Assembly: GCA_031426435.1 (NCBI GenBank)
Contig: JANPLH010000612.1
Location: 4,022-68,021, forward strand
Length of the DNA: 64,000 nt
Direction of reading: 5' to 3'
DNA from: Saprospiraceae bacterium
GTDB lineage: Bacteria > Bacteroidota > Bacteroidia > Chitinophagales > Saprospiraceae
Position numbers and translations under genes: made by a program. Of the stretch, positions 4,009 through 12,672 are shown piece by piece. The notes under the pieces were generated by a model. The model made no database searches. It saw only the letters and a program-made list of their open reading frames with translations, and had not been told where the DNA came from. Every line of letters starts with the position of its first letter. Positions within the stretch are counted from its first letter, which is position 1.

Positions 4009-4542
4009 TTACACTAATTTGTTGTTTTGAATGAACTGCTCCACTGCCTCCGTCAGCTTCCTAAAATTGGCTGGAATCATGCTGGCCATAAATGACTCTA
4101 TCCCCTGAGCAACGAGCGGCCCCGCCATTTTGATGGGCAGTGCATTGGTTTGCCAGTGCAGTGTACCCTCAAAGCTAAGCCTACATGCCTTGCCGCCCAT
4201 GGCTGCCTCAAAGGTGGTGTTGCCAATGCAGGACATCTGCTCCTTGAAATAATGCGACCGGATTTCCCATCGGCAACTACGCTGCGCTTCCTTCCAAACG
4301 GCACTGTCTGTCCAGGTAAGCATGTCTGGTTGCACCATTTTGGCCAAAAAATCGGGAAGCGGTGGCCTTGCCTTCCACACATTGACCATCAACAAATGCC
4401 CTTCCTCATTCTCGCCGCTGCTTATCGGGCTTACGCTCTCAATGTCGGGCACCGCCGCTGCGATTTCCGGGAGGTGTCCTTGCATGGTTTCCCACACCAA
4501 TGCTGTGGGGTGCTTTACGATGGTGACGGTTCTGAATTCCAT
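4009..4542 (-). CDS. SRPBCC/START-like (polyketide-cyclase/lipid-binding fold) protein, operon gene I
   Basis: The ATG at 4542 gives MEFRTVTIVKHPTALVWETM..., the typical start of an SRPBCC domain. The ORF track extends to a TTG at 4566. The length and beta/helix pattern fit the family, but there is no catalytic assignment. Confidence 0.6.
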   Translation of the reverse strand: MEFRTVTIVKHPTALVWETMQGHLPEIAAAVPDIESVSPISSGENEEGHLLMVNVWKARPPLPDFLAKMVQPDMLTWTDSAVWKEAQRSCRWEIRSHYFKEQMSCIGNTTFEAAMGGKACRLSFEGTLHWQTNALPIKMAGPLVAQGIESFMASMIPANFRKLTEAVEQFIQNNKLV

Positions 4543-4566
4543 TGTACTTGATGGGTGATTTGACAA

Positions 4567-5631
4567 CTAATTTTTCAAAGACATGCCAAAGGATTGGCGA
4601 TGAGCATAAATCTCTGGCGACAATTCCATTTGCGACCTAATAGAAGGAGAAACATGTTCACTTGCGGCCAACCATGAAATGGCTTCTATCAGGGCTGCTT
4701 TGGCGGGTCGCCCCACATAGCCCAGTTCTTCCGCCGCTTTTTGATGACTGTACCAATAGTAGTTGCCCACCATTTTAGCCTGTTCCCTGGTAGAAATTGG
4801 GCGGTCGTTGGTCAACAGGCTCAATGCTTCCTGCAATGCAGAGGCAAGGTATGCAGCGGTATGATATACCTTCAAATAGGGACCTGGCATGCCGGTAAGC
4901 GATGAAATGAGTTGGTGAATTGCTTGCCACTCCAAGTTTTCGCCCCCCAGCAGGTAGCGTTCTCCCGACCGTCCATTTTCTGCGGCTAAAACGTGCCCCT
5001 CTGCCACATCCTGCACCGAGGCAATATTGCAACCACCTATCCACGAGGTTTTGAACAAATCTTGCAAGTAGCTGACAATGTGGTGGTTGCTCTCGGTCAG
5101 CCCATAATCATGCCCGCCCACCACCACTGTCGGATGCACAGAGACAAGTTCTACTATACCGTCTTTTGCCATTTCAAAAGCGGCATCCACTTGCCCCTTT
5201 TTCGCCAAAACATAAGCAGGCGCTGACTCGATGCTGCCAGGGTGGGCCTCGTCAAGAATACGCTGTTGGCCAGTACTGCCAAAAACAACGGACGATGAGG
5301 TGAGCACCATGCGGCACACGCCCGCCGCCTTTGCCGCCGTTATTACATGCTTCACTCCTTCTTTGGCTTCGCCAATAAGCTGCTCAGGTGGCTGCCGCCA
5401 ATAACTAAAAACGCCCGCAACGTGGAACACCCATTCACAGCCCTCCATTGCAGCCGTCAAGGTGGCAGGTTGCTGTATGTCGCCAATTGCCATTTCCACA
5501 TTTAACCCTTCCAAACTTCGCAAATCACTGGTTGGCCTTATGAGCGCTCGCACGGAATGACCCTTGGCGAGCAGCGCCTGCACGACATGGCTGCCGATAA
5601 AACCGTTTGCCCCTGTAACAAGTGCTCTCAT
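4567..5631 (-). CDS. Extended SDR, NAD(P)-dependent epimerase/dehydratase or dihydroflavonol-4-reductase/HpnA-like, operon gene H
   Basis: MRALVTGANGFIGSHVVQALLAKGHSVRALIRP is a Rossmann GxxGxxG motif. The start ATG at 5631 overlaps the stop of the upstream gene (ATGA). The ORF-track N-terminal extension is not needed. Confidence 0.85.
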   Translation of the reverse strand: MRALVTGANGFIGSHVVQALLAKGHSVRALIRPTSDLRSLEGLNVEMAIGDIQQPATLTAAMEGCEWVFHVAGVFSYWRQPPEQLIGEAKEGVKHVITAAKAAGVCRMVLTSSSVVFGSTGQQRILDEAHPGSIESAPAYVLAKKGQVDAAFEMAKDGIVELVSVHPTVVVGGHDYGLTESNHHIVSYLQDLFKTSWIGGCNIASVQDVAEGHVLAAENGRSGERYLLGGENLEWQAIHQLISSLTGMPGPYLKVYHTAAYLASALQEALSLLTNDRPISTREQAKMVGNYYWYSHQKAAEELGYVGRPAKAALIEAISWLAASEHVSPSIRSQMELSPEIYAHRQSFGMSLKN

Positions 5632-7790
5632 GGCTGGTTTTGGTTGTTCAATAAATTGATGTCCTTTTTGGCCGCTGTTGCCAGCTCTCCAAATAACTGT
5701 CTCAATGCATCTGTGGCTGGATTGCTTTCGGTACTTGGGCTGAAATGGCGGTAGCCAAGGTCGTCTTGTTGCCAACTGCCGGGTTGGCCGCTTGCTTGTC
5801 GGGAGCTATTTACCAATTTTTCCACCAAACCGGAAAGCATGTTCAATAGGCCCTTCAGCTTGTCAATTTCCGGCGGCAACATGGAGGAGGGGCCATGCCC
5901 CTCTCCGAATGCCATATCAAATGCTTTACCCACCAATGGCGACCTGCCCTCATAGCTTGCTTCGAAATTTGCCATGGTACGTGAAAAGAATCGGATGTAG
6001 GAATCGGAGACCAGTGCATCTTTCACCTTCGGCAAATAGTCTATGTTGAATACTTGCCAGAACAAGGGCAGCGCAAATTTTTGCCTTGCAACGATGGAGA
6101 CCCGCACGCCACCGGGGTCTTTGGCAAAGGTGACCATGCCATCATCAAATGTTGCCGAGTTGTTGGCACTGTGAACGGTACGCCAAAAAATCTGCTGCTG
6201 CGAAAAACCGTAACGGATGACCTCTATTTTGTCCACATCAATATACTCGCCACCAAAAAGGGCCATCCAGTTTGGTTGGGGCAGGTATATGTCCCTTTCT
6301 ACCTGATAGATGGTGCGCTGCTTTCCGTCATGTTTCACTGCCTGCCTTGCTCCGCCAATATTGTCGTACATCATTTCCACGGCACGGCTGATGTCCACCC
6401 GCTCCACAAAATCGGAATACGGCACCGGGATGATTTTGGAATATTCGAACAAAACCGAATCGTCAAGGTAGCGCCAGCAGAGTCCATTGCGGTCGGGGGG
6501 CGTATGCTTCAGGATGTTGCAAAAAGGCAGAATATAGCTTTCCACCTCCTCAAAATCTTCCGTTGAAAAACTGTTTGGGTTCACGTTCAAGGCTACCGCC
6601 TTGCGGTAAAGGCGGTCTTTGTCGTACAGTATCTGCCAGGTTTCCTGAAAATGCTGCGCTCCGGCAAGCAGGTAATTCAAGGTAACCATTCCCCAAAACG
6701 CCATCGGGTGGTCGTCAAGGTCTGTTGTCAATGGGGACAGCAGGTTATTGATTTGGCCGTCGAGGATGTTTTTGAAGGGAAACAGCGAGGTGTTTACCTG
6801 AAGCAGCCATGCCTCTGCAAGCCGCTGCGAGAGCAAGGATTCATTTCGCTTGCGGGTGGACTCCCGGACATGGATGGGCACGTTCTTCCAACCAGGATAG
6901 GGTGAAAGGTCGCCGTACAATTGGTAAGATTTGGGCAAGCCTATTTTACGCAGTGCCGCTGCGTTCAATTGCGAAGCATAGGGGTCAAGCCCCATCTTTA
7001 GGGCAGCCGCCCAATCTGCCAGCAGCAAGTGGTTGCCAGCAATGATGGTATGTGTAGCAATGGGGTTGGAGCGAAGCGTTCCCTGGCTGCCGTGATTGCT
7101 CCAATAGGCATCTATGATAGCAAAGTGAACTTCGGTGCGCTCCAACAGCCCAACCACTACCTCATTCTGCGGCAACCGGTGATGGTAGTGGTAGGTTTTT
7201 GCCCGAAGCGGCAGAATGCCGAGCAAGTTGTTCAGACCGAGGGCAAAACATTGGGCTTGGTCGGTCTTGTTTTTTGAAAAAACGATGCGAAAATGCGCTT
7301 GCAACCAATGGGACGAAACTTCCGAGTTGCGAAGTGCGCTGCCTTCGGGAAAGCCGCCGTCCATCAGCGACTCTCCAAGGTCGAGCACCTCGTATTCATT
7401 GCCGTTTGGGGTGCAAAATTGGTAGCCACAAAGGTCGGCGAGCACCATGACTTCCCGGTTTTCCAGCCATTGGCCCGAAGCCCCTTCTGCATCTGCCACG
7501 GCCACCTTGGTGTAGCCTTGCTCATGAAGCAGGTCAATCAAATGCTCTACCAAGCGGGGGTCGGTGCCAGTGGTCGCCCCGCAGTCAAAAAGCTCCAAAT
7601 CTGGCTTTATCAGAATGGCCATGTCGGGCCTTTCAACGCAGCATTGCCCCCGCACAAGTTCGAGCGCTTCCCACAAACCACCCTCCTGTAAGGCTGCTTG
7701 CAATAGCTGCACTGCCGGCTCTCTGCCAGTTTTAATGGAACAGCTAACCGTGCCTGGGATGGTTTGTGTCTTTAGTGCTCGTTTTGCCAT
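5628..7790 (-). CDS. Two-domain protein: DUF362-like N-terminal domain fused to an SRPBCC/START-like C-terminal region, operon gene G
   Basis: 720 aa. ILIKPDLELFDCGATTGTDPRLVEHLIDLLHEQGY...IIDAYWSNHGSQG...AGNHLLLADWAAALKMGLDP follows the DUF362 pattern. Residues about 400-640 have an SRPBCC-like alternation, and the tail is helical. Confidence 0.6.
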   Translation of the reverse strand: MAKRALKTQTIPGTVSCSIKTGREPAVQLLQAALQEGGLWEALELVRGQCCVERPDMAILIKPDLELFDCGATTGTDPRLVEHLIDLLHEQGYTKVAVADAEGASGQWLENREVMVLADLCGYQFCTPNGNEYEVLDLGESLMDGGFPEGSALRNSEVSSHWLQAHFRIVFSKNKTDQAQCFALGLNNLLGILPLRAKTYHYHHRLPQNEVVVGLLERTEVHFAIIDAYWSNHGSQGTLRSNPIATHTIIAGNHLLLADWAAALKMGLDPYASQLNAAALRKIGLPKSYQLYGDLSPYPGWKNVPIHVRESTRKRNESLLSQRLAEAWLLQVNTSLFPFKNILDGQINNLLSPLTTDLDDHPMAFWGMVTLNYLLAGAQHFQETWQILYDKDRLYRKAVALNVNPNSFSTEDFEEVESYILPFCNILKHTPPDRNGLCWRYLDDSVLFEYSKIIPVPYSDFVERVDISRAVEMMYDNIGGARQAVKHDGKQRTIYQVERDIYLPQPNWMALFGGEYIDVDKIEVIRYGFSQQQIFWRTVHSANNSATFDDGMVTFAKDPGGVRVSIVARQKFALPLFWQVFNIDYLPKVKDALVSDSYIRFFSRTMANFEASYEGRSPLVGKAFDMAFGEGHGPSSMLPPEIDKLKGLLNMLSGLVEKLVNSSRQASGQPGSWQQDDLGYRHFSPSTESNPATDALRQLFGELATAAKKDINLLNNQNQP

Positions 7791-7798
7791 TAGTGGTT

Positions 7799-8095
7799 TT
7801 ACTTCAGCAGGTTCTCTACCGCTTTTACCGAGGCTGTGATGGAAGCCTTGGAAAACTCAGCCTGTGCATCCAGCCAGCTTTCGGCCATGTTTCGCCACAT
7901 TGTTTCTGCGTCTTCGGTCTCTATAGTTTTTAAGCCCGCCACCTTCATGGCCGACCGTTGCACCTTCAAGCCACCGTCCATGCAGGCAGTGCAGAACCGC
8001 CTCCAATCGTCAACTGCCTGCTTGGCCTGCGGGGCAGAATGCTCGCAGTAATCCAGGATGAAGGAAGAAAATGGGTTGTTTTTGTTATTCGACAT
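7799..8095 (-). CDS. Small all-helical hypothetical protein (phasin-like composition), operon gene F
   Basis: 98 aa with an ATG start, lying 8 nt upstream of gene G. There is no TM segment or signal peptide. The amphipathic helical sequence resembles the N-termini of genes C and D. Confidence 0.55.
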   Translation of the reverse strand: MSNNKNNPFSSFILDYCEHSAPQAKQAVDDWRRFCTACMDGGLKVQRSAMKVAGLKTIETEDAETMWRNMAESWLDAQAEFSKASITASVKAVENLLK

Positions 8096-8143
8096 GGTGA
8101 TAAGAATGGTTGAATTGATTGATGACGCACTTGCGCACCCATG

Positions 8144-9367
8144 TTAAGGGCTGACAAGGTAGCTGTGGTGAAATCCCAATCGGGGGTCCGCCAATTTGCC
8201 CACTAGCGGCACGAACTCTTGTATGTCGGGCATTGGCACCCGCAGCCTTAAGCTCAGGGATGGGTAATCGTAAATTGTGATATGGTTAAGCCCCCGGTTT
8301 GCCGTGAACAACAAGCTTTGGTCTTTTGAAAGTTGGGTGGCGTGCACGGAGTCCATCAACCGGAAATGGCTGACCCGCAGCGCACCTAATATATGTTCGG
8401 TGGAGGTGAAAAGGTTTGCCCGCACCAAAACATCGTAAGCGGTGGTGGCCATGGTGCGCTTATGGTTCATCACTTCCTGCAAGTCTGGTTTTTCGTCAAT
8501 AATGCGGAATTCTGAAAAGTTTTCGAGGTTGATGAACACGATGGAATGGCTGCCGCCATTGCAAAAAATCAGCTCCGTATCAGAAATGGTAACATCAGAA
8601 TTGATATGGCAAGGCATTTCCCGCCCGCATGCCCAATGCCGTACCACCCGCTTGCTGGCGGGGTCAATTTCAAAAGCGTATTCCTTGAAAAAGGCAATTG
8701 CCCATTGGTGGTAGTCTGTATGGTGCTGCGGCAATACCCTGAACGAGACGGCGTAAAAAAGGTCCTTGACCGGGTGGTTGATCAGGTGCCAGCAAGTGGC
8801 AGGAAGGTCAATGCGGGTAGTCTCCCCGGTCTGCATGTCCAATATGCCAACCATTTTGGCCTCGCCTTTTGCGCCAAAGGCGGGATTGTCCATGGAGCCG
8901 TAACAGAGGTAGCGCCGTGATGGGGTAAACTTCATGCTGTGCGGCAGCAATACCTTGTGCGGCCCCAATTTTTCACCCTTGTCCAGCCGATTGACATTGA
9001 AGCGGTAAAAGTTTTCGCCGATGGCGGCTATGAACTCCTCGTTGCTCAGCCAGGCGATGTGGGTGCTGCCTTGTATGCTGGTATTCGGCACCTCGAAGCC
9101 GAGGGTTGATTGCCGGTGCAGTTCATCCAAGGTAAGCGGGTCGTAAAAAGCAAGGTGCTGCCCGGTGGTGCCCATGTACCCCAGTTTCCGGTCAGGGCTG
9201 ATATGAACAGCATGGCCCCCAGCCATGCCATTGAAGTATTTTATTTTAAAGGCGTAGGAATTGTCGGCGGGGTCGAAAAGGAAATTGCACACACCAGCCA
9301 AGCCCTCCAATCCATTGATGCCGTTGCCATCGAGGGCGATGTGAAATGCGTATGGATAAGTTTTCAT
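8144..9367 (-). CDS. Hypothetical His-rich protein, probable beta-propeller, operon gene E
   Basis: 407 aa with an ATG start and no signal peptide. It has repeated beta-strand-rich segments and His motifs NHPVKD, PCHINSD, SVHATQ and GFHHSY. Confidence 0.6.
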   Translation of the reverse strand: MKTYPYAFHIALDGNGINGLEGLAGVCNFLFDPADNSYAFKIKYFNGMAGGHAVHISPDRKLGYMGTTGQHLAFYDPLTLDELHRQSTLGFEVPNTSIQGSTHIAWLSNEEFIAAIGENFYRFNVNRLDKGEKLGPHKVLLPHSMKFTPSRRYLCYGSMDNPAFGAKGEAKMVGILDMQTGETTRIDLPATCWHLINHPVKDLFYAVSFRVLPQHHTDYHQWAIAFFKEYAFEIDPASKRVVRHWACGREMPCHINSDVTISDTELIFCNGGSHSIVFINLENFSEFRIIDEKPDLQEVMNHKRTMATTAYDVLVRANLFTSTEHILGALRVSHFRLMDSVHATQLSKDQSLLFTANRGLNHITIYDYPSLSLRLRVPMPDIQEFVPLVGKLADPRLGFHHSYLVSP

Positions 9368-9432: not shown

Positions 9433-10167
9433 TCAAGTTTTGGCCTTTTTTGTAGCGCTTGTTTTATTGACAGCGGCTTTTTTTGGGGTGGCTGTGCTGC
9501 TATTGGTTTCTGGTTTTTTAGCATGGACTACCAAAACAAAGGCAGTATCTTCAAACCCATCTACAATGACTTCGCAGAGATAGGTGGCTGGTTCCAGTGC
9601 AGCAGGCAGCATCACTGAAATGGTGGCTGGCACGACCTGTCCGGGTGGTATCTCAAATTGTTGTGGGTCAAAGGCAAGTCCAATATGGGCAGGTGACCCA
9701 GTATCAGCATGTACGAAACTTGTGGCCTCGAACCTGCCATATTGGGTGCCGGGTCGGCTGCTTTGCATCTGAAGGATGTTGGCGATGGTTTCGCCGGGGT
9801 GGCCTGTCATTGAGATTTGGTGGCGTTCGGCAGGGGGCGGTGGAGGTGGTGGTGGTACCGTTCTTTCCGCTGTTTGTGCAGGTTCCGCACGAGGTGTTGT
9901 TCCTTGTTGCGACAGCAAATTTGCCATACTGTTGGACCACTCAAGACCAAGGTCAATCAAGCGCTCTGTGTACTTGAGGTTCAACTGGAACAAGTCGTTC
10001 ATCCTTTGGGAAAAATTATTCCCATCAGCGCCTTTGGGCTGGTCGGACACGAGGCGTTTCATGGCCGCTGCCGAATCAGTCACCATTTGTTTATTGGCTT
10101 CCACCGACTTCTTGAAAATCCGCTCAACGTCTTTCACCCAGTCGTTTTGGCCATTTGATGTTGCCAT
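9433..10167 (-). CDS. Hypothetical protein: helical N-domain, poly-Pro linker, Ig-like beta-sandwich and Lys-rich tail; operon gene D
   Basis: 244 aa. An eight-proline run is encoded at about 9835-9860. The C-terminal part (HQISMTGHPGET...YLCEVIVDGFEDTAFVLVV) looks like a beta-sandwich. The tail is KKPETNSSTATPKKAAVNKTSATKKAKT. Confidence 0.6.
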   Translation of the reverse strand: MATSNGQNDWVKDVERIFKKSVEANKQMVTDSAAAMKRLVSDQPKGADGNNFSQRMNDLFQLNLKYTERLIDLGLEWSNSMANLLSQQGTTPRAEPAQTAERTVPPPPPPPPAERHQISMTGHPGETIANILQMQSSRPGTQYGRFEATSFVHADTGSPAHIGLAFDPQQFEIPPGQVVPATISVMLPAALEPATYLCEVIVDGFEDTAFVLVVHAKKPETNSSTATPKKAAVNKTSATKKAKT

Positions 10168-10234: not shown

Positions 10235-10897
10235 TCACCCCACCATACCGGGGCGCTGTTCAGGCTTTTGTTCGCAATAAAAATGGTCCTGCCAGCTTTG
10301 CCAATGCAGGAAGTATTCTTTTTCATCGAGTGGGCAGACTTCTGGCCCATTGCCGCAAGCCCTCACGTTCAATTTGAAGCAAACATTCTGGTTGACCTCA
10401 GCCTCCCGGATTACGATATCAGTCGAATAGGTATTGCCCGCTTCAAACCCCTGCATCAGGTTGACGGTCATCAGCACAGCGATGGACTGCCCCGGTTCCA
10501 GTATTACCGTGTCCCTGTTCAATAATGGTTGCATGGGAGCTGTATTTCCGTGCTGGTCAACCAATTGGCGCAACCCAATCCTGTATGTCTTGGTGGCTCC
10601 GCATTTGTTCTTGATGCTGAACGGTACTACGATGACCTCGCCCTCGCAGGCCTCCCGCACGATTTCGGCAAGGCAACGGGGAGGGCAGGTTTTCTTGGGC
10701 GGACAACAGTCACTTTGGTTTGCAGCCCTATAGGTCGGTGCAGCCATTTTGGTGTAAGCATCCCCTGCCATTTTGAGGTTGTTCTGCACCATTTGAGTCA
10801 GAAAGTCGGTGTATGCTCCATAAAATGAGGGGACCCTATTAAGAACGTTGGAAGCATCTCTCCAAAAATTGGCTTGCGGGTTTGTGGTCTCTTCCAT
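10235..10897 (-). CDS. Hypothetical Cys-rich protein: helical N-domain, CCPPKKTCPPRC linker and Ig-like beta-sandwich; operon gene C
   Basis: The ATG at 10897 gives MEETTNPQ...; the track starts at a TTG at 10927. It has 10 Cys and no signal peptide. Confidence 0.6.
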   Translation of the reverse strand: MEETTNPQANFWRDASNVLNRVPSFYGAYTDFLTQMVQNNLKMAGDAYTKMAAPTYRAANQSDCCPPKKTCPPRCLAEIVREACEGEVIVVPFSIKNKCGATKTYRIGLRQLVDQHGNTAPMQPLLNRDTVILEPGQSIAVLMTVNLMQGFEAGNTYSTDIVIREAEVNQNVCFKLNVRACGNGPEVCPLDEKEYFLHWQSWQDHFYCEQKPEQRPGMVG

Positions 10898-10977: not shown

Positions 10978-11892
10978 TTAAGATTTTTTCTTTACCACTT
11001 TAACAGGTGGCGGCACATTAGCAGTCGGTGTAGCCGGGCGCACGGGCGCAGCGGGTTTAGGGGTGGATGAGGCTGTTGTAGTTATCGTTGAAGCTGCAGG
11101 TTTTGGCATAGGTGCAGGTTCAGGCACTGCGGGCACTATCTTGTAACTCAGGAGTTGGTCAATAATGCGGATGTCACCCTCGTAGAGCCAAGTTGGTTGA
11201 ATGTCTTTGGGCAGGGTGAAAGCAAGGTGCAACACCAGCGTTTCGCCCGGCTGTACCAACTGACCTGCTTCCCTGACCGTAACCGTAGCCCAACTGGCCA
11301 CGTCGTTTTTCATTCCTCTGATGAAAACATCAAGCGTTTCTTGCATCCCGCTTTCTTTGTCCTTGCGGAGTGCGAATGCAAGGTTTCTACAAATCAAGTC
11401 CATGTCCACGGTAGTGTTGTGCTTGATGGTTGGCACGATGACCGGGATGTTGCCTTTGTTTACCAGCAGCACCTCTTTGTTGCAGGTCTCGCCTGGTTTG
11501 GTACCGAAGAAAACAATTTCACTCGGTACCAATTCAATTTCAAGGGTTTCCTGTACTACTACCGAAATCTCCCGCTTTACACCACCAATCTCCACAGTGG
11601 AGCGGTAGGTGCCCGGTGCTGTGGATGGGTGCATGGATATGGAAAGCGTTTGGCGCCGAACCTCGCCCCCCATCAAAACAGAGTTGATGGTCAGGCCAGC
11701 TTTTGGAATGGCAACCGCAGAACGGGAACTACTCTTCGAGAAAGCCAACTCTTGAAGGAAGACTGGCTCGTTGTGGGAATTCTCCAAAGTGACGTAGCCA
11801 AGCAACGCTTGTGGCGGGCCGCTCAAGAGGATTTCTGCATCCCTGCAACCTATCTTTTCAAGCCCTTCTGCTATGAAATTTTCGGTGGTCAT
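10978..11892 (-). CDS. Hypothetical protein with two Ig/ASH/DUF1573-like beta-sandwich modules and a Pro/Ala/Thr/Lys tail; operon gene B
   Basis: 304 aa with an ATG start. SEIVFFGTKPGETCNKEVLLVNKGNIPVIV resembles ASH/DUF1573 modules. The tail is PAVPEPAPMPKPAASTITTTASSTPKPAAPVRPATPTANVPPPVKVVKKKS. Confidence 0.6.
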   Translation of the reverse strand: MTTENFIAEGLEKIGCRDAEILLSGPPQALLGYVTLENSHNEPVFLQELAFSKSSSRSAVAIPKAGLTINSVLMGGEVRRQTLSISMHPSTAPGTYRSTVEIGGVKREISVVVQETLEIELVPSEIVFFGTKPGETCNKEVLLVNKGNIPVIVPTIKHNTTVDMDLICRNLAFALRKDKESGMQETLDVFIRGMKNDVASWATVTVREAGQLVQPGETLVLHLAFTLPKDIQPTWLYEGDIRIIDQLLSYKIVPAVPEPAPMPKPAASTITTTASSTPKPAAPVRPATPTANVPPPVKVVKKKS

Positions 11893-11951: not shown

Positions 11952-12542
11952 TCACTTGGGATTGGCTTTTACTCCAACGTTCTGGTTCAAGGTCGGATTG
12001 CCAACGGTTTGGTCGGTAGTTCGTTGCGGAAAAGGCCGGGTATCTGGTTCACAGCAGATTGTCTCGCATTTCTCGTAGGCATTGGGCACGTATGGCTCAG
12101 TGATCACCTGCGATTCTCCGCTGAAGCATAGGGTCAAAACTTCCAGGCCGAGGAACTTGAGACATACTTGGTTGTAGTGCGGTATATGCATCCTTATCTC
12201 CGGCGTCAGCAAATCTTTGATGTCCTGTTTTGACAAATGGGGCAGGTTGAGCAGGTCTATCTGCGAACCAATGGGCATATTGGGGTCTCCCATTATCAAG
12301 GAAGCCACCGGGTTGTTTTTCTCGCCGGTTACGTGGGTGCCTATCGGTTGCGACTTCTCGCCAGTTACGTGGGTACCAATTGGCTGGGCCTTGTCACCAG
12401 TCACATGGGTACCTATCGGTTGCGACTTGTCGCCCCGGACATAAGTATTCACGGTCATTGGCATTGTAAAAATGGTCAAGCCAGTTCCAAAGTTGATGGA
12501 ATGGGTATAACTGGTCGGAATCTTAAGGGAAGGAGCTGCCAT
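11952..12542 (-). CDS. Hypothetical protein with five tandem 12-residue repeats (GDKSQPIGTHVT type) and a Cys-containing C-terminal domain; first gene (A) of the operon
   Basis: 196 aa with ATG at 12542. The repeats were verified codon by codon, and the C-terminus contains CETICCEPD. Confidence 0.6.
   Translation of the reverse strand: MAAPSLKIPTSYTHSINFGTGLTIFTMPMTVNTYVRGDKSQPIGTHVTGDKAQPIGTHVTGEKSQPIGTHVTGEKNNPVASLIMGDPNMPIGSQIDLLNLPHLSKQDIKDLLTPEIRMHIPHYNQVCLKFLGLEVLTLCFSGESQVITEPYVPNAYEKCETICCEPDTRPFPQRTTDQTVGNPTLNQNVGVKANPK
12255..12434 (-). repeat. In-frame 36-nt x 5 tandem repeat inside gene A
   Basis: Units are 12399-12434, 12363-12398 and 12327-12362 (near-identical peptides GDKSQPIGTHVT / GDKAQPIGTHVT / GEKSQPIGTHVT), then 12291-12326 and 12255-12290 (degenerate: GEKNNPVASLIM, GDPNMPIGSQID). 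Confidence 0.9.
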
Positions 12543-12672
12543 TGGGCTGAATGAAGTTTGGTGAATGGTTGGTAATCAGCGCCAATATAAAACATATTTT
12601 GCCAATATTGAAAATGGCGGGGAAAAATATTGAAAAAAACGCTTGCTGCCATAACATGCTCAATATGCAAAA

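Follow-up and report, generated by a model that had tools for sequence, protein, structure and literature searches.

We found that a gene from a Saprospiraceae bacterium encodes a 12-residue peptide unit, present in five tandem copies, which is kept by purifying selection while the number of units changes among orthologues. The encoded protein, A, belongs to a family that, like the gene cassette around it, is absent from Pfam, NCBIfam, PHROGs, PADLOC, and PDB. The interpretation that we favor, with a probability of about 55%, is that the array serves as a length-variable structural beta-repeat rod or as a multivalent array of strands, within an assembly in the cytoplasm that is linked to isoprenoid lipids. 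By itself, the repeat is a clean case of a short tandem peptide unit under purifying selection with copy-number turnover. Because the repeat-bearing gene opens a conserved, uncharacterized four-gene cassette (A-B-C-D) found beside isoprenoid-lipid genes in several phyla, the cassette outweighs the repeat and is the more noteworthy of the two.

A 12-residue tandem repeat under purifying selection

The window (the whole 64,000-nucleotide stretch of DNA that was analyzed) contains gene A and its repeat array at the following positions:

11952 to 12542, minus strand: gene A, ORF of 196 amino acids with an ATG start, first gene of the cassette
12435 to 12455, minus strand: TVNTYVR, possible half unit (strand part only) leading into the array; weak, from sequence comparison
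12255 to 12434, minus strand: five in-frame units of 36 nucleotides (12 residues), inside gene A
12399 to 12434, minus strand: u1, GDKSQPIGTHVT
12363 to 12398, minus strand: u2, GDKAQPIGTHVT
12327 to 12362, minus strand: u3, GEKSQPIGTHVT
12291 to 12326, minus strand: u4, GEKNNPVASLIM
12255 to 12290, minus strand: u5, GDPNMPIGSQID

The coding frame is on the minus strand, which had gone unmentioned in the initial annotation. With Tandem Repeats Finder, we obtained an array of period 36 at positions 12319 to 12434 (3.2 copies, 78% matches, no indels, score of 148), and the period-12 self-similarity of the N-terminal region of A (mean BLOSUM62 score of 1.56) was equalled in no more than 1 of 100 shuffles. 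The initial annotation had counted six synonymous codon differences and one S-to-A change between u1 and u2, and four synonymous differences and one D-to-E change between u1 and u3, and both counts are exact. With the Nei-Gojobori method and Fisher's test, pS and pN are 0.78 and 0.037 for u1 and u2 (P = 3e-5), 0.44 and 0.037 for u1 and u3 (P = 0.009), and 0.78 and 0.074 for u2 and u3 (P = 1e-4). The in-frame 36-nucleotide repeat is therefore real, with a peptide that is kept (pN of 0.04 to 0.07 among u1 to u3) while synonymous sites have diverged (pS of 0.44 to 0.78). With synonymous sites between units near saturation, we agree with the earlier proposals that this is not recent slippage and that the peptide period is under purifying selection.

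Units u4 and u5, which had been described as degenerate copies, are part of the array and both fit the family consensus G-[DNE]-x3-P-[VILM]. The same description of TVNTYVR is plausible but weak: it has T and V in common with IGTHVT and aligns with PxxVN[ST]xV of orthologues, and of a unit it matches the strand half alone. Units u1 and u3 are identical at 31 of 36 nucleotides, exceeding the match of either to any orthologous unit, which points to a lineage-specific duplication.

Turnover of unit copy number among orthologues

The initial annotation had suggested examining orthologues of A for varying copy number and a dN/dS well below 1, and we observed both. The unit is retained among 120 homologues, with numbers varying from zero to seven (only one or two in most orthologues), and 193 of 203 unit spacings are exactly 12 residues. 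Two closely related orthologues with five and four units (L086 and L087, respectively) differ in the repeat region with a dN of 0.053 and a dS of 0.363 (omega of ∼0.15), so that purifying selection acts between orthologues as well as within the gene; comparison of the window gene with either one gives a pN of 0.13 to 0.17, with dS saturated. A contig that is 99.8% identical (590/591 nucleotides) keeps all five units with one E62D change, a two-unit duplication is present in homologues P0003-5, and the length changes are all of whole units. Copy number thus appears to turn over by gain and loss of whole units while purifying selection keeps the unit itself, a pattern typical of structural repeat proteins.

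Across the family, the units have the consensus G-D-P-N-K-P-V-A-T-L-I-T. Only four positions are conserved throughout: G1, D/N2, P6, and position 7, which is hydrophobic. The search pattern (G[DNE]...P[VILM]) itself fixes G1 and P6, hence their frequency of 100%, and position 2 is nearly invariant (84% D, 15% N). Many orthologues have 8-residue x-G-x-h-x-x-x-h units beside the 12-mers, and significant periodicity of the N terminus was found in 91 of 116 members from Bacteroidota (periods of 12, 8, 16, and 24) and in 50 of 93 distant members (periods of 4 to 24). Unit number does not correlate with the lengths of B and C (rho of 0.01 and −0.07), and a simple ruler matched to B or C is therefore not indicated.

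The A family and its C-terminal domain

We found >190 Bacteroidota homologues of A; the 190 homologues at an E value of ≤0.01 are all unnamed or annotated as 'hypothetical', and a profile search adds distant relatives in Actinobacteria and Methylomirabilota. Searches with A against Pfam, NCBIfam, PHROG, PADLOC, and PDB gave no match, and a full-text literature search found no description of the A family or of the cassette; the 'ebo' cluster of eustigmatophytes we take to be a different gene set. Members have three parts in common: at the N terminus a conserved motif and a periodic region, and at the C terminus a conserved domain that bears Cys. The motif, M-x-x-P-S-[IV]-K-I-P-x-x-Y-T-H, is conserved among orthologues and supports the ATG at position 12542, and the periodic region consists of G-D-x3-P-[VI]-x-[TS]-x-h-x units (zero to seven copies) or of repeats with other periods. 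The N terminus of the window protein, MAAPSLKIPTSYTH, has no signal-peptide-like segment when read by eye.

12027 to 12254, minus strand: family-defining C-terminal domain of A, residues 97 to 172 (LLNLP...RPFP), with invariant and near-invariant columns

This 76-residue domain is the most conserved portion of A, and the profile search recovers it in other phyla. R117, P121, Y123, G132, C139, G142, E143, Y151, P153, E157, and C159 are invariant, and C127, C139, C159, C163, and C164 form a Cys cluster. The window protein contains the family core, [LI]P..-R.H.P.Y...-G.E....C.GE.Q.I.EPY.PN..E.C, following its periodic N terminus, and a B homologue is encoded downstream. The profile search also returned several giant repeat proteins (P0149, P0172, P0206, P0221, and P0242); P0172 and P0206 have only subthreshold Pfam matches, and P0221 and P0242 were discarded as family members because on reading they are unrelated low-complexity repeats.

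The A-B-C-D cassette

The remaining cassette genes and those downstream of them in the window are as follows:

10978 to 11892, minus strand: gene B, 304 amino acids, two modules of Ig-like (ASH/HYDIN-like) type and a tail rich in Pro, the invariant partner of A
10235 to 10897, minus strand: gene C, 220 amino acids, helical N terminus, CCPP..CPP.C motif, and Ig-like body, with invariant Cys/Pro columns
9433 to 10167, minus strand: gene D, 244 amino acids, phasin-like N-terminal helix and Ig/fn3-like C terminus, from weak profile matches
4009 to 9367, minus strand: clade-specific downstream module E-I, in ∼13 Saprospiraceae-type loci only
8144 to 9367, minus strand: gene E
7799 to 8095, minus strand: gene F
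5628 to 7790, minus strand: gene G, DUF362
4567 to 5631, minus strand: gene H, HpnA-like SDR
4009 to 4566, minus strand: gene I, SRPBCC

Gene B is directly downstream of A, and the order A-B-C is kept, in 82 of 83 loci; D was found by tblastn in 68 of the 83, and the D ORF cluster spans 74 loci and is usually duplicated. Gene order is conserved from Bacteroidota to Actinobacteria and Methylomirabilota, with homologues of B and C adjoining A-like genes in Methylomirabilota and Cellulomonas: hhalign relates the B profile to the Methylomirabilota neighbor with a probability of 99.6% (E = 2e-24), and C to the Cellulomonas neighbor at 90.6%. The resemblance of B to HYDIN is weak (E = 0.25), and with TIGR03466 (HpnA) H reaches 273 bits, short of the 368-bit cutoff. 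None of the four cassette proteins has a recognizable signal peptide (A being judged by eye), and no enzyme-family matches were found in B, C, or D.

The cassette is rare, and its absence from all 400 genomes sampled across the phylum and all 24 of the genus excludes a general housekeeping role. A defense system was rejected, as PADLOC gave no match for A to G, and the flat GC content of the cluster and its flanks (0.50 to 0.52) argues against recent horizontal transfer into this genome. A scan for sigma-70 promoters and terminators, which is ill-suited to Bacteroidota promoters, gave nothing beyond the shuffle expectation.

Predicted structure and likeness to known systems

Structure prediction, which had been suggested as a check, gives ordered and regular structure for residues 31 to 110, with AF2 pLDDT values of 82 to 90 in a first model and 70 to 79 in a second made from a deeper alignment. 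Beta-bridges recur at unit positions 2 and 5, with one bridge ladder per unit. In the C-terminal domain, AF2 predicts a helix (residues 105 to 111) and a long amphipathic beta-hairpin (residues 117 to 130 and 133 to 147), with a pLDDT of 72 to 88 in the model from the deeper alignment. The monomer models have low pTM values (0.29 to 0.37) and appear extended, as judged from Foldseek results rather than from coordinates. Foldseek returned no PDB match at an E value of ≤10 for model 1 and 12 for model 2, all with E values of >2.8 and none significant; matches in BFVD had TM scores of ≤0.16, and a profile search of PDB sequences gave nothing beyond noise at an E value of 1.5. The 'beta-solenoid or filament' of the initial annotation is probably the best class for the array, and the range of repeat periods in the family (4 to 24) does not fit a single solenoid geometry.

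We compared A with several kinds of short-repeat protein. Like A, the fibrous beta-repeat proteins (T4 gp5C with its VxGxxxxx triple beta-helix, the adenovirus fiber shaft, and HylP/endosialidase stalks), which possess a folding nucleus at the C terminus, have short, Gly-marked strand/turn repeats of 8 to 16 residues in variable copy number, and the conserved C-terminal domain of A could nucleate assembly; however, Adeno_shaft matched only 1 of 148 members (E = 0.031), 3gw6 was found at an E value of 9.7, and A occurs in a cytoplasmic, nonviral context and has no PHROG match. The antifreeze protein of Tenebrio molitor (TCTxSxxCxxAx) shares a period of exactly 12, small residues at fixed positions, and one bridge ladder per unit, but its 12-residue beta-helix, with two Cys per coil in a disulfide ladder, can be rejected: there is no Cys in any unit of A and hence no disulfide core, so that the stabilizing principle of that fold is absent, and Foldseek found no match. 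An RTX beta-roll (PF00353, GGxGxDxUx, period of 9, 18 residues per turn) does not agree with the 12-residue spacing, with the unit G-D-x3-P-V-x-T-x-h-x, or with the lack of Pfam matches at an E value of ≤0.1, or of ≤10 across 148 members. Of the 12 residues of the unit, IGTHVT agrees with the left-handed beta-helix hexapeptide (PF00132, [LIV]-[GAED]-x2-[STAV]-x, hexads in triads of 18) and GDKSQP does not, and there is no Pfam match. A secreted functional amyloid of the curli type was discarded, as A lacks a signal peptide by eye and the cluster has no csg or fap homologues.

The C-terminal domain resembles GvpA/GvpJ (PF00741) in its predicted succession of helix, long amphipathic beta-hairpin, and helix, and GvpA is likewise a small, first-in-operon protein within a cluster of structural-looking proteins. 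There is a local motif likeness (FLGLEVLTL in A and LADVELLSI in GvpA/J), and the gas-vesicle shells 7r1c and 8gbs rank third and fourth of the 12 Foldseek matches (E values of 4.1 and 4.6, TM scores of 0.22 to 0.24, from a model with a pTM of 0.29). However, the N-terminal array and the Cys cluster of A are both missing from GvpA, and no gvp genes were found in the window genome. Homology was rejected, with PF00741 matching none of 148 members at an E value of ≤10 and hhalign giving a probability of <1% when A6 or A5 was compared with an alignment of the GvpJ type; we keep the likeness as a lead.

Links to isoprenoid and phasin genes

A trans-polyprenyl synthase gene (PF00348) lies beside the cassette in 51 of 80 loci and a gene of the geranylgeranyl-reductase family in 48 of 80, and these two are the only recurrent enzymes across 83 loci. 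In the five distant contexts, PF00348 is always within 4 kb. In the clade of the window genome, genes for an HpnA-like SDR, DUF362, START, and SRPBCC proteins replace this pair, and the PF00348 gene is absent from the cluster. By synteny, the cassette is genomically tied to isoprenoid-lipid enzymes.

Phasin-like helices are present in C and D, two of the four cassette proteins. Members of the D family have weak Phasin_2 matches in 17 of 79 cases and Ig/fn3-type matches in ∼40, and a distant A-like domain (P0208) is fused to a genuine Phasin_2 domain, passing the threshold (E = 2.4e-16, 60 bits). D and its paralogues with phasin-like N-terminal helices, together with this fusion and the linkage to lipid genes (here isoprenoid), recall phasin-coated inclusions, but the cluster has no PHA synthase. 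A itself shows no likeness to phasins: it does not match Phasin_2 (PF09361), the D of the window scores 19 bits against a gathering score of 24.9, and P0208 alone passes.

Proposed role of the array and alternatives to it

In the explanation that we favor, each 12-residue unit would contribute one short, amphipathic beta-strand ([VI]-x-[TS]-x-[VIL]-x), preceded by a fixed turn (G-D/N-x-x-x-P), and tandem units would build a regular beta-rich rod or strand array whose length shifts through gain or loss of whole units. The array precedes the family-defining domain with its predicted helix, long amphipathic beta-hairpin, and Cys cluster, which probably oligomerizes or docks on partners. We infer that the A-B-C-D cassette may form a cytoplasmic protein scaffold or coat associated with isoprenoid lipid, within which the repeat would be a spacer that sets length or a multivalent donor of strands. 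The analysis shows the repeat, its selection, the family, the synteny, and the predicted order; the fold class, oligomerization, binding partners, and link to lipids are inferred. A bolder version, which we regard as distinctly speculative, is that proteins of the A family are the subunits that make up the wall or struts of a cytoplasmic body, bounded by protein and not described before, which would contain or arrange reduced polyprenyl or triterpenoid lipids. The GvpA-like module of helix and amphipathic hairpin would polymerize with its hydrophobic face toward the lipid, and the array, with its lineage-variable copy number and period, would set the spacing or recruit the Ig-like and phasin-like B to D proteins. 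If so, this would be a multiphylum bacterial isoprenoid organelle, with a logic like that of gas vesicles, PHA granules, and encapsulins with polyprenyl-transferase cargo.

The array could instead be a series of short linear motifs in a flexible scaffold, as in CsoS2 or a tandem beta-zipper, with each 12-mer binding one partner copy by strand addition, e.g., the Ig-like domains of B, C, and D; the array would then cross-link many partners and form no autonomous rod. We consider this possible, if rather unlikely. CsoS2 carries [IV][TS]G motifs, which the [VI]-[TQ]-G-[DN] motif of the units recalls, and, as CsoS2 is generally described, A is also like it in having conserved Cys, a variable repeat number, and structural partners encoded nearby. 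Ig-like beta-sandwiches occur in every partner protein, independent binding motifs readily accommodate variable copy number and period, and the extended appearance of the models is as expected. However, a disordered scaffold would not usually be modeled with a pLDDT of 82 to 90 and regular bridges, the cluster contains no genes for BMC or encapsulin shells, and copy number does not change with the number of D paralogues in the way that this reading predicts: one or two units are found where D is accompanied by D', and three to five where D is single.

The other functions that the initial annotation had offered fare worse. It had proposed a metal- or ligand-binding array in which His, Asp, and Thr side chains recur at regular intervals, and for this the near invariance of D/N at position 2 and the T-H-V-T of two or three units in the window gene and its closest relatives can be cited, and Ca2+ is bound by Gly-Asp turns in RTX beta-rolls. 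Family-wide, however, the His that the window gene has at position 10 occurs in no more than 9% of units, with L, D, or T at this position in most homologues; the GGxGxD nonapeptide is lacking, neither HemolysinCabind nor another Pfam family of metal repeats is matched, and the invariant Cys that could bind metal sit in the C-terminal domain, outside the repeat. We thus find such an array improbable. We give even less weight to the suggested multicore precursor of the RiPP type, in which the 12-mers would be cut out or modified (the linked PF00348 enzyme might prenylate them), with the C-terminal domain as a 'follower' for recognition. The layout of near-identical short tandem peptides with one conserved domain is suggestive, as is the linkage of PF00348 across phyla, this being the family of ComQ, which prenylates ComX. 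But the invariant neighbors are nonenzymatic Ig-like and helical proteins, and the cassette lacks a protease, transporter or exporter, radical-SAM, YcaO, or other maturase; the units have no conserved nucleophile (Trp, Cys, or Tyr) and number only one or two in most orthologues; the window clade has no PF00348 gene in the cluster, the linked synthases elsewhere look like ordinary IdsA/GGPP-synthase-type enzymes, and the portion of A that is most conserved is its folded C-terminal domain. The reading that the array arose neutrally or by recent slippage, or that the ORF is no real gene, has almost no chance of being correct: the tandem DNA repeat itself, and nothing else, speaks for it, and near-saturated synonymous divergence with a kept peptide, an omega of ∼0.15, exclusively whole-unit length changes, and frame, start, and domain conserved in >190 homologues all speak against it.

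If the cassette with its structural repeat array does build a cytoplasmic structure around isoprenoid lipids, bacteria would have a new type of inclusion or scaffold, which is also a possible tool to compartmentalize terpenoid production. The cassette hypothesis is testable in cultured carriers, which include Haliscomenobacter hydrossis, Terrimonas ginsenosidimutans, Dyadobacter bucti, Chryseolinea serpens, Niabella insulamsoli, and a Cellulomonas sp.

A selected 12-residue repeat in gene A

The repeat at 12255-12434 falls within a minus-strand open reading frame (gene A; 11952-12542, 196 aa, ATG start), a strand that the initial annotation did not give, and its minus-strand translation consists of five back-to-back 12-residue units:

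12399-12434, minus strand, unit u1, GDKSQPIGTHVT
12363-12398, minus strand, unit u2, GDKAQPIGTHVT
12327-12362, minus strand, unit u3, GEKSQPIGTHVT
12291-12326, minus strand, unit u4, GEKNNPVASLIM
12255-12290, minus strand, unit u5, GDPNMPIGSQID

Tandem Repeats Finder reports a period of 36 at 12319-12434 (3.2 copies, 78% matches, score 148, no indels). Two repetitive plus-strand ORFs (12217-12444 and 12237-12554; 75 and 105 aa; SPVTWVPIG three times) are antisense frame shadows of A and not genes. The codon counts reported initially are exact, with six synonymous differences and one S-to-A change between u1 and u2, and four synonymous differences and one D-to-E change between u1 and u3. By the Nei-Gojobori method, pS among u1-u3 is 0.44-0.78 and pN is 0.037-0.074, and Fisher tests of the synonymous excess give p = 3e-5, 0.009, and 1e-4.

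The DNA of three relatives was compared with the window gene. L089, on a 5.5-kb contig, differs by a single base (G186C, giving E62D) and retains five units; L086 (79% amino acid identity) has five units, and L087 (71%) has four. For the repeat regions of L086 and L087, dN is 0.053 and dS 0.363 (omega ∼0.15); when either is compared with the window gene, dS is saturated, and pN is lowest in the C-terminal domain (0.08-0.12), intermediate in the repeats (0.13-0.17), and highest over the first 36 codons (0.20-0.21). The expectation that orthologues would vary in copy number with a dN/dS well below 1 is thus borne out, and neutral slippage, which the initial annotation had already discounted as a recent event, is refuted both by pS well above pN among units and by the low omega between orthologues. 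Units u4 and u5 are positional orthologues in the window gene, L086, and L087, and the T-H-V-T units have duplicated separately within lineages: u1 and u3 of the window gene are identical at 31/36 nt, with either matching any orthologous unit at 29 or fewer, and L086 u2 and u3 are identical at 30/36. There is also an apparent two-unit duplication in the homologous proteins P0003-5. From the duplication pattern and the orthologue comparison, we conclude that the array gains and loses whole units, and that new units then come under purifying selection. We interpret the repeat as a structural element that is translated and under selection.

A survey of 120 homologues yielded 322 units matching G-[DNE]-x3-P-[VILM] (GD units), with 193 of the 203 spacings exactly 12 residues long and 0 to 7 units per homologue (mode 2). 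The consensus is G-D-P-N-K-P-V-A-T-L-I-T; G at position 1 and P at position 6 (both 100%) are set by the search pattern, and position 7, which the pattern also restricts, is V, I, or L. Position 2 is D in 84% and N in 15%, and position 9 is T or S in 88%. Position 10 is His in just 9%, and the His is therefore a local feature of the window gene's subclade.

The A family and its periodic N terminus

A word-indexed search found 190 homologues of A at E≤0.01, all unnamed or 'hypothetical', the named sources being Bacteroidota (Saprospiraceae, Haliscomenobacter hydrossis, Terrimonas, Ferruginibacter, and Lacinutrix). A is unmatched in Pfam, NCBIfam, PHROGs, and PADLOC, the best E value of its profile against PDB sequences is 1.5, and a literature search found no description of the family or of its cassette. 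The alignment has three parts: an N-terminal motif (M-x-x-P-S-[IV]-K-I-P-x-x-Y-T-H), the repeat region, and a C-terminal domain whose sequence is highly conserved (LLNLP...IPNYNQ.CFK..G.E.F..C.SGE.QVITEPYVPNA.ERCE..CCEPDTRPFP) and which has five near-invariant Cys (127, 139, 159, 163, and 164).

The family reaches beyond Bacteroidota: searching 1.8 billion representative proteins with its profile gave 173 matches at E≤0.001. Distant members (110-200 aa) share the core [LI]P..R.H.P..F..G.S..G.E....LCGE.Q.ITEPY.PN.CE.C, and their N-terminal repeats are short and quite unlike the 12-mer: GGVRTELA (8 residues), GDPQRPIAAQVGVELV (16), DSKIDLKS (8), DPITL (5), and GLDDIRV-type. By autocorrelation with a shuffle control, N-terminal periodicity is significant in 91/116 Bacteroidota members (period 12 in 52, 8 in 17, 16 in 13, and 24 in 5) and in 50/93 distant members (periods 4 to 24). 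The family trait is thus a set of stacked short strand-turn units preceding the conserved domain, and the 12-mer is the variant used and expanded in the window genome's clade. In one distant relative, P0208, an A-type C-terminal domain (residues 1-70) is fused to a bona fide Phasin_2 domain (E = 2.4e-16), which is independent domain-fusion evidence linking the family with phasin-like coat proteins.

Predicted structure and alternative explanations

Structure prediction, a check proposed in the initial annotation, supports a regular array. With the 120-sequence alignment, AlphaFold2 gives a mean pLDDT of 70, with residues 31-110 at 82-90, and model 1 has isolated beta-bridges recurring at positions 2 and 5 of the units (residues 38/41, 50/53, 74/77, and 86/89), which could be either parallel, giving a solenoid, or antiparallel, with units paired; the C-terminal domain is ill-defined. 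A broader 148-sequence alignment that includes distant relatives leaves the bridge pattern unchanged (repeat pLDDT 70-79) and predicts, in the C-terminal domain, a long beta-hairpin (117-130/133-147, pLDDT 72-88) preceded by a helix at 105-111 and followed by a shorter one at 155-158. As read from the sequence, the hairpin would have a hydrophobic face of M118, I120, V126, L128, F130, L136, L138, F140, and V146.

The repeat is reminiscent of fibrous beta-repeat proteins (triple beta-helices and beta-spirals) and has the same period as the 12-residue helix of TmAFP, but the defining features of both are missing and no homology to either is detectable. Foldseek gives no PDB matches for model 1, noise alone in BFVD (TM≤0.16), and, for model 2, 12 PDB matches, none significant (all E>2.8). 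Two of these are gas-vesicle shells, and the predicted helix-hairpin-helix resembles GvpA, but homology to GvpA is rejected by profile comparisons. The array is therefore classed as a selected structural tandem repeat in an undescribed family; that the cassette as a whole is something new we consider rather unlikely.

Each unit can be read as a fixed turn (G-D/N-x3-P, Asx-Pro type) and an amphipathic strand of six or seven residues, whose two faces in the window gene carry I, T, and V, and G, H, and T, respectively. Most economically, the units would form a regular beta-rich rod or set of strand modules, with length tuned by unit number, that projects from or leads into the C-terminal hairpin/Cys domain, which may mediate assembly. 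A CsoS2-like or tandem-beta-zipper multivalent scaffold is a possible rival explanation. The initial annotation also raised a metal-binding array of His, Asp, and Thr, but the His is not conserved across the family; its further proposal of a multi-core (RiPP) precursor is countered by the absence of maturases and of a conserved nucleophile, and by the presence of only one or two units in most orthologues.

The A-B-C-D cassette and its genomic context

Genes B to I follow A on the same strand, with spacers of 59-80 nt:

10978-11892, minus strand, B
10235-10897, minus strand, C
9433-10167, minus strand, D
8144-9367, minus strand, E
7799-8095, minus strand, F
5628-7790, minus strand, G (DUF362)
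4567-5631, minus strand, H (SDR)
4009-4566, minus strand, I (SRPBCC)

Of 83 loci (80 from a species-representative genome scan plus three more), 82 have A-B-C in this order by tblastn and 68 have D, counts that include related, non-independent genomes and MAGs whose taxon labels may be wrong.

Loci containing each family, from clustering of all neighbouring ORFs
A, 80
B, 78
C, 76
D, 74 (125 members, hence usually D plus a paralogue)
PF00348 polyprenyl synthase (PPS), 51
Geranylgeranyl-reductase-family (GGR) flavoprotein, 489 aa, 48
DUF362 (G), 14
E, 13
SDR (H), 12
SRPBCC (I), 9

The G, E, H, and I families are confined to Saprospiraceae-type loci, the window's own type. The GGR flavoprotein scores 224 bits against TIGR02032 (cut-off 158.8), and H is HpnA-like (273 bits against TIGR03466, under its cut-off); both alternative modules thus have a terpenoid-lipid flavour. 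The cassette has a rare, patchy distribution, being found in 0/24 other genomes of the genus and 0/400 sampled genomes of the phylum, and nothing in the GC content indicates recent import. In two MAGs, labelled Deltaproteobacteria (QJWJ01000068) and Hyphomicrobiales (CAYULF010000002), the cassette is 37-51% identical to those of Bacteroidota and is accompanied by the same PPS/GGR pair, reflecting either mis-binning or horizontal transfer.

Repeat number varies with locus type. Where the E/G/H/I module is present, A has 3-5 GD units and D occurs singly; where the PPS/GGR pair is present, A has 0-2 (4 in one exception) as well as Gly-marked units of 8 residues, and D is accompanied by D'. In the PPS/GGR type (L041, L059, and ∼35 other loci), the commonest distance from the N terminus to the NLP motif is exactly 78 residues, comprising 8-residue x-G-x-h-x3-h units and one GD unit, in sequences that diverge to 35-45% identity; this recurrence suggests a length constraint, relaxed in the window's clade. 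GD-unit number does not correlate with the length of B or C (rho 0.01 and -0.07), and the 12-mer expansion is therefore a clade feature rather than a simple match to partner size.

Association with PF00348 recurs for distant A-like genes. In Cellulomonas and two related contigs, PF00348 is followed by four unknown genes, the A-like gene, proteins of ∼245, 200, and 170 aa, and a UbiE-type methyltransferase; in a Methylomirabilota contig, the A-like gene and a 291-aa protein adjoin two PF00348 genes and a Nudix gene; and in a further contig, the A-like gene precedes proteins of 244, 197, 200, and 134 aa, PF00348, and a GGR-like gene. The Methylomirabilota neighbour is confirmed as B by hhalign (probability 99.6%, E = 2e-24), and lower probabilities suggest that the Cellulomonas neighbours may be B (72%) and C (90.6%). 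PF00348 enzymes beside the cassette (L004:11717-12745, L090:4283-5350, and L091) score high, though under the threshold (147-199 bits), against NF041169 ('family 2 encapsulin cargo polyprenyl transferase'), the top match for the Cellulomonas enzyme; no encapsulin shell gene lies near those at L004, L090, and L091.

The D family has recurrent weak Ig/fn3-type matches (∼40/79 members) and weak Phasin_2 matches (17/79, best 1.9e-4), and B has a weak HYDIN/ASH-type match (E = 0.25). The invariant Ig-like/phasin-like partners, the absence of signal peptides (by eye), and the cross-phylum polyprenyl synthase linkage together point to a cytoplasmic scaffold or coat that, judging by synteny, may be tied to isoprenoid lipid.

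E (407 aa), which belongs to no Pfam or NCBIfam family, is unusually constrained and probably an enzyme: its identity across all 13 Saprospiraceae-type loci is ∼77%, against only 25-58% for A-D. C has an invariant CCPP-x3-CPP-x-C motif, no export signal, and a C-terminal W-Q-S-W-Q-x-H-F-Y-C-E-P motif, with W202, H205, Y207, and C208 conserved in 52 sequences. Upstream of A, the AT-rich 130-nt spacer at 12543-12672 (minus strand) has two copies of ATATTGGC (caATATTGGCaaaatatgttttATATTGGCgc) near the A start, possibly a promoter or operator, and TATGTTTT resembles the Bacteroidota -7 element TAnnTTTG.
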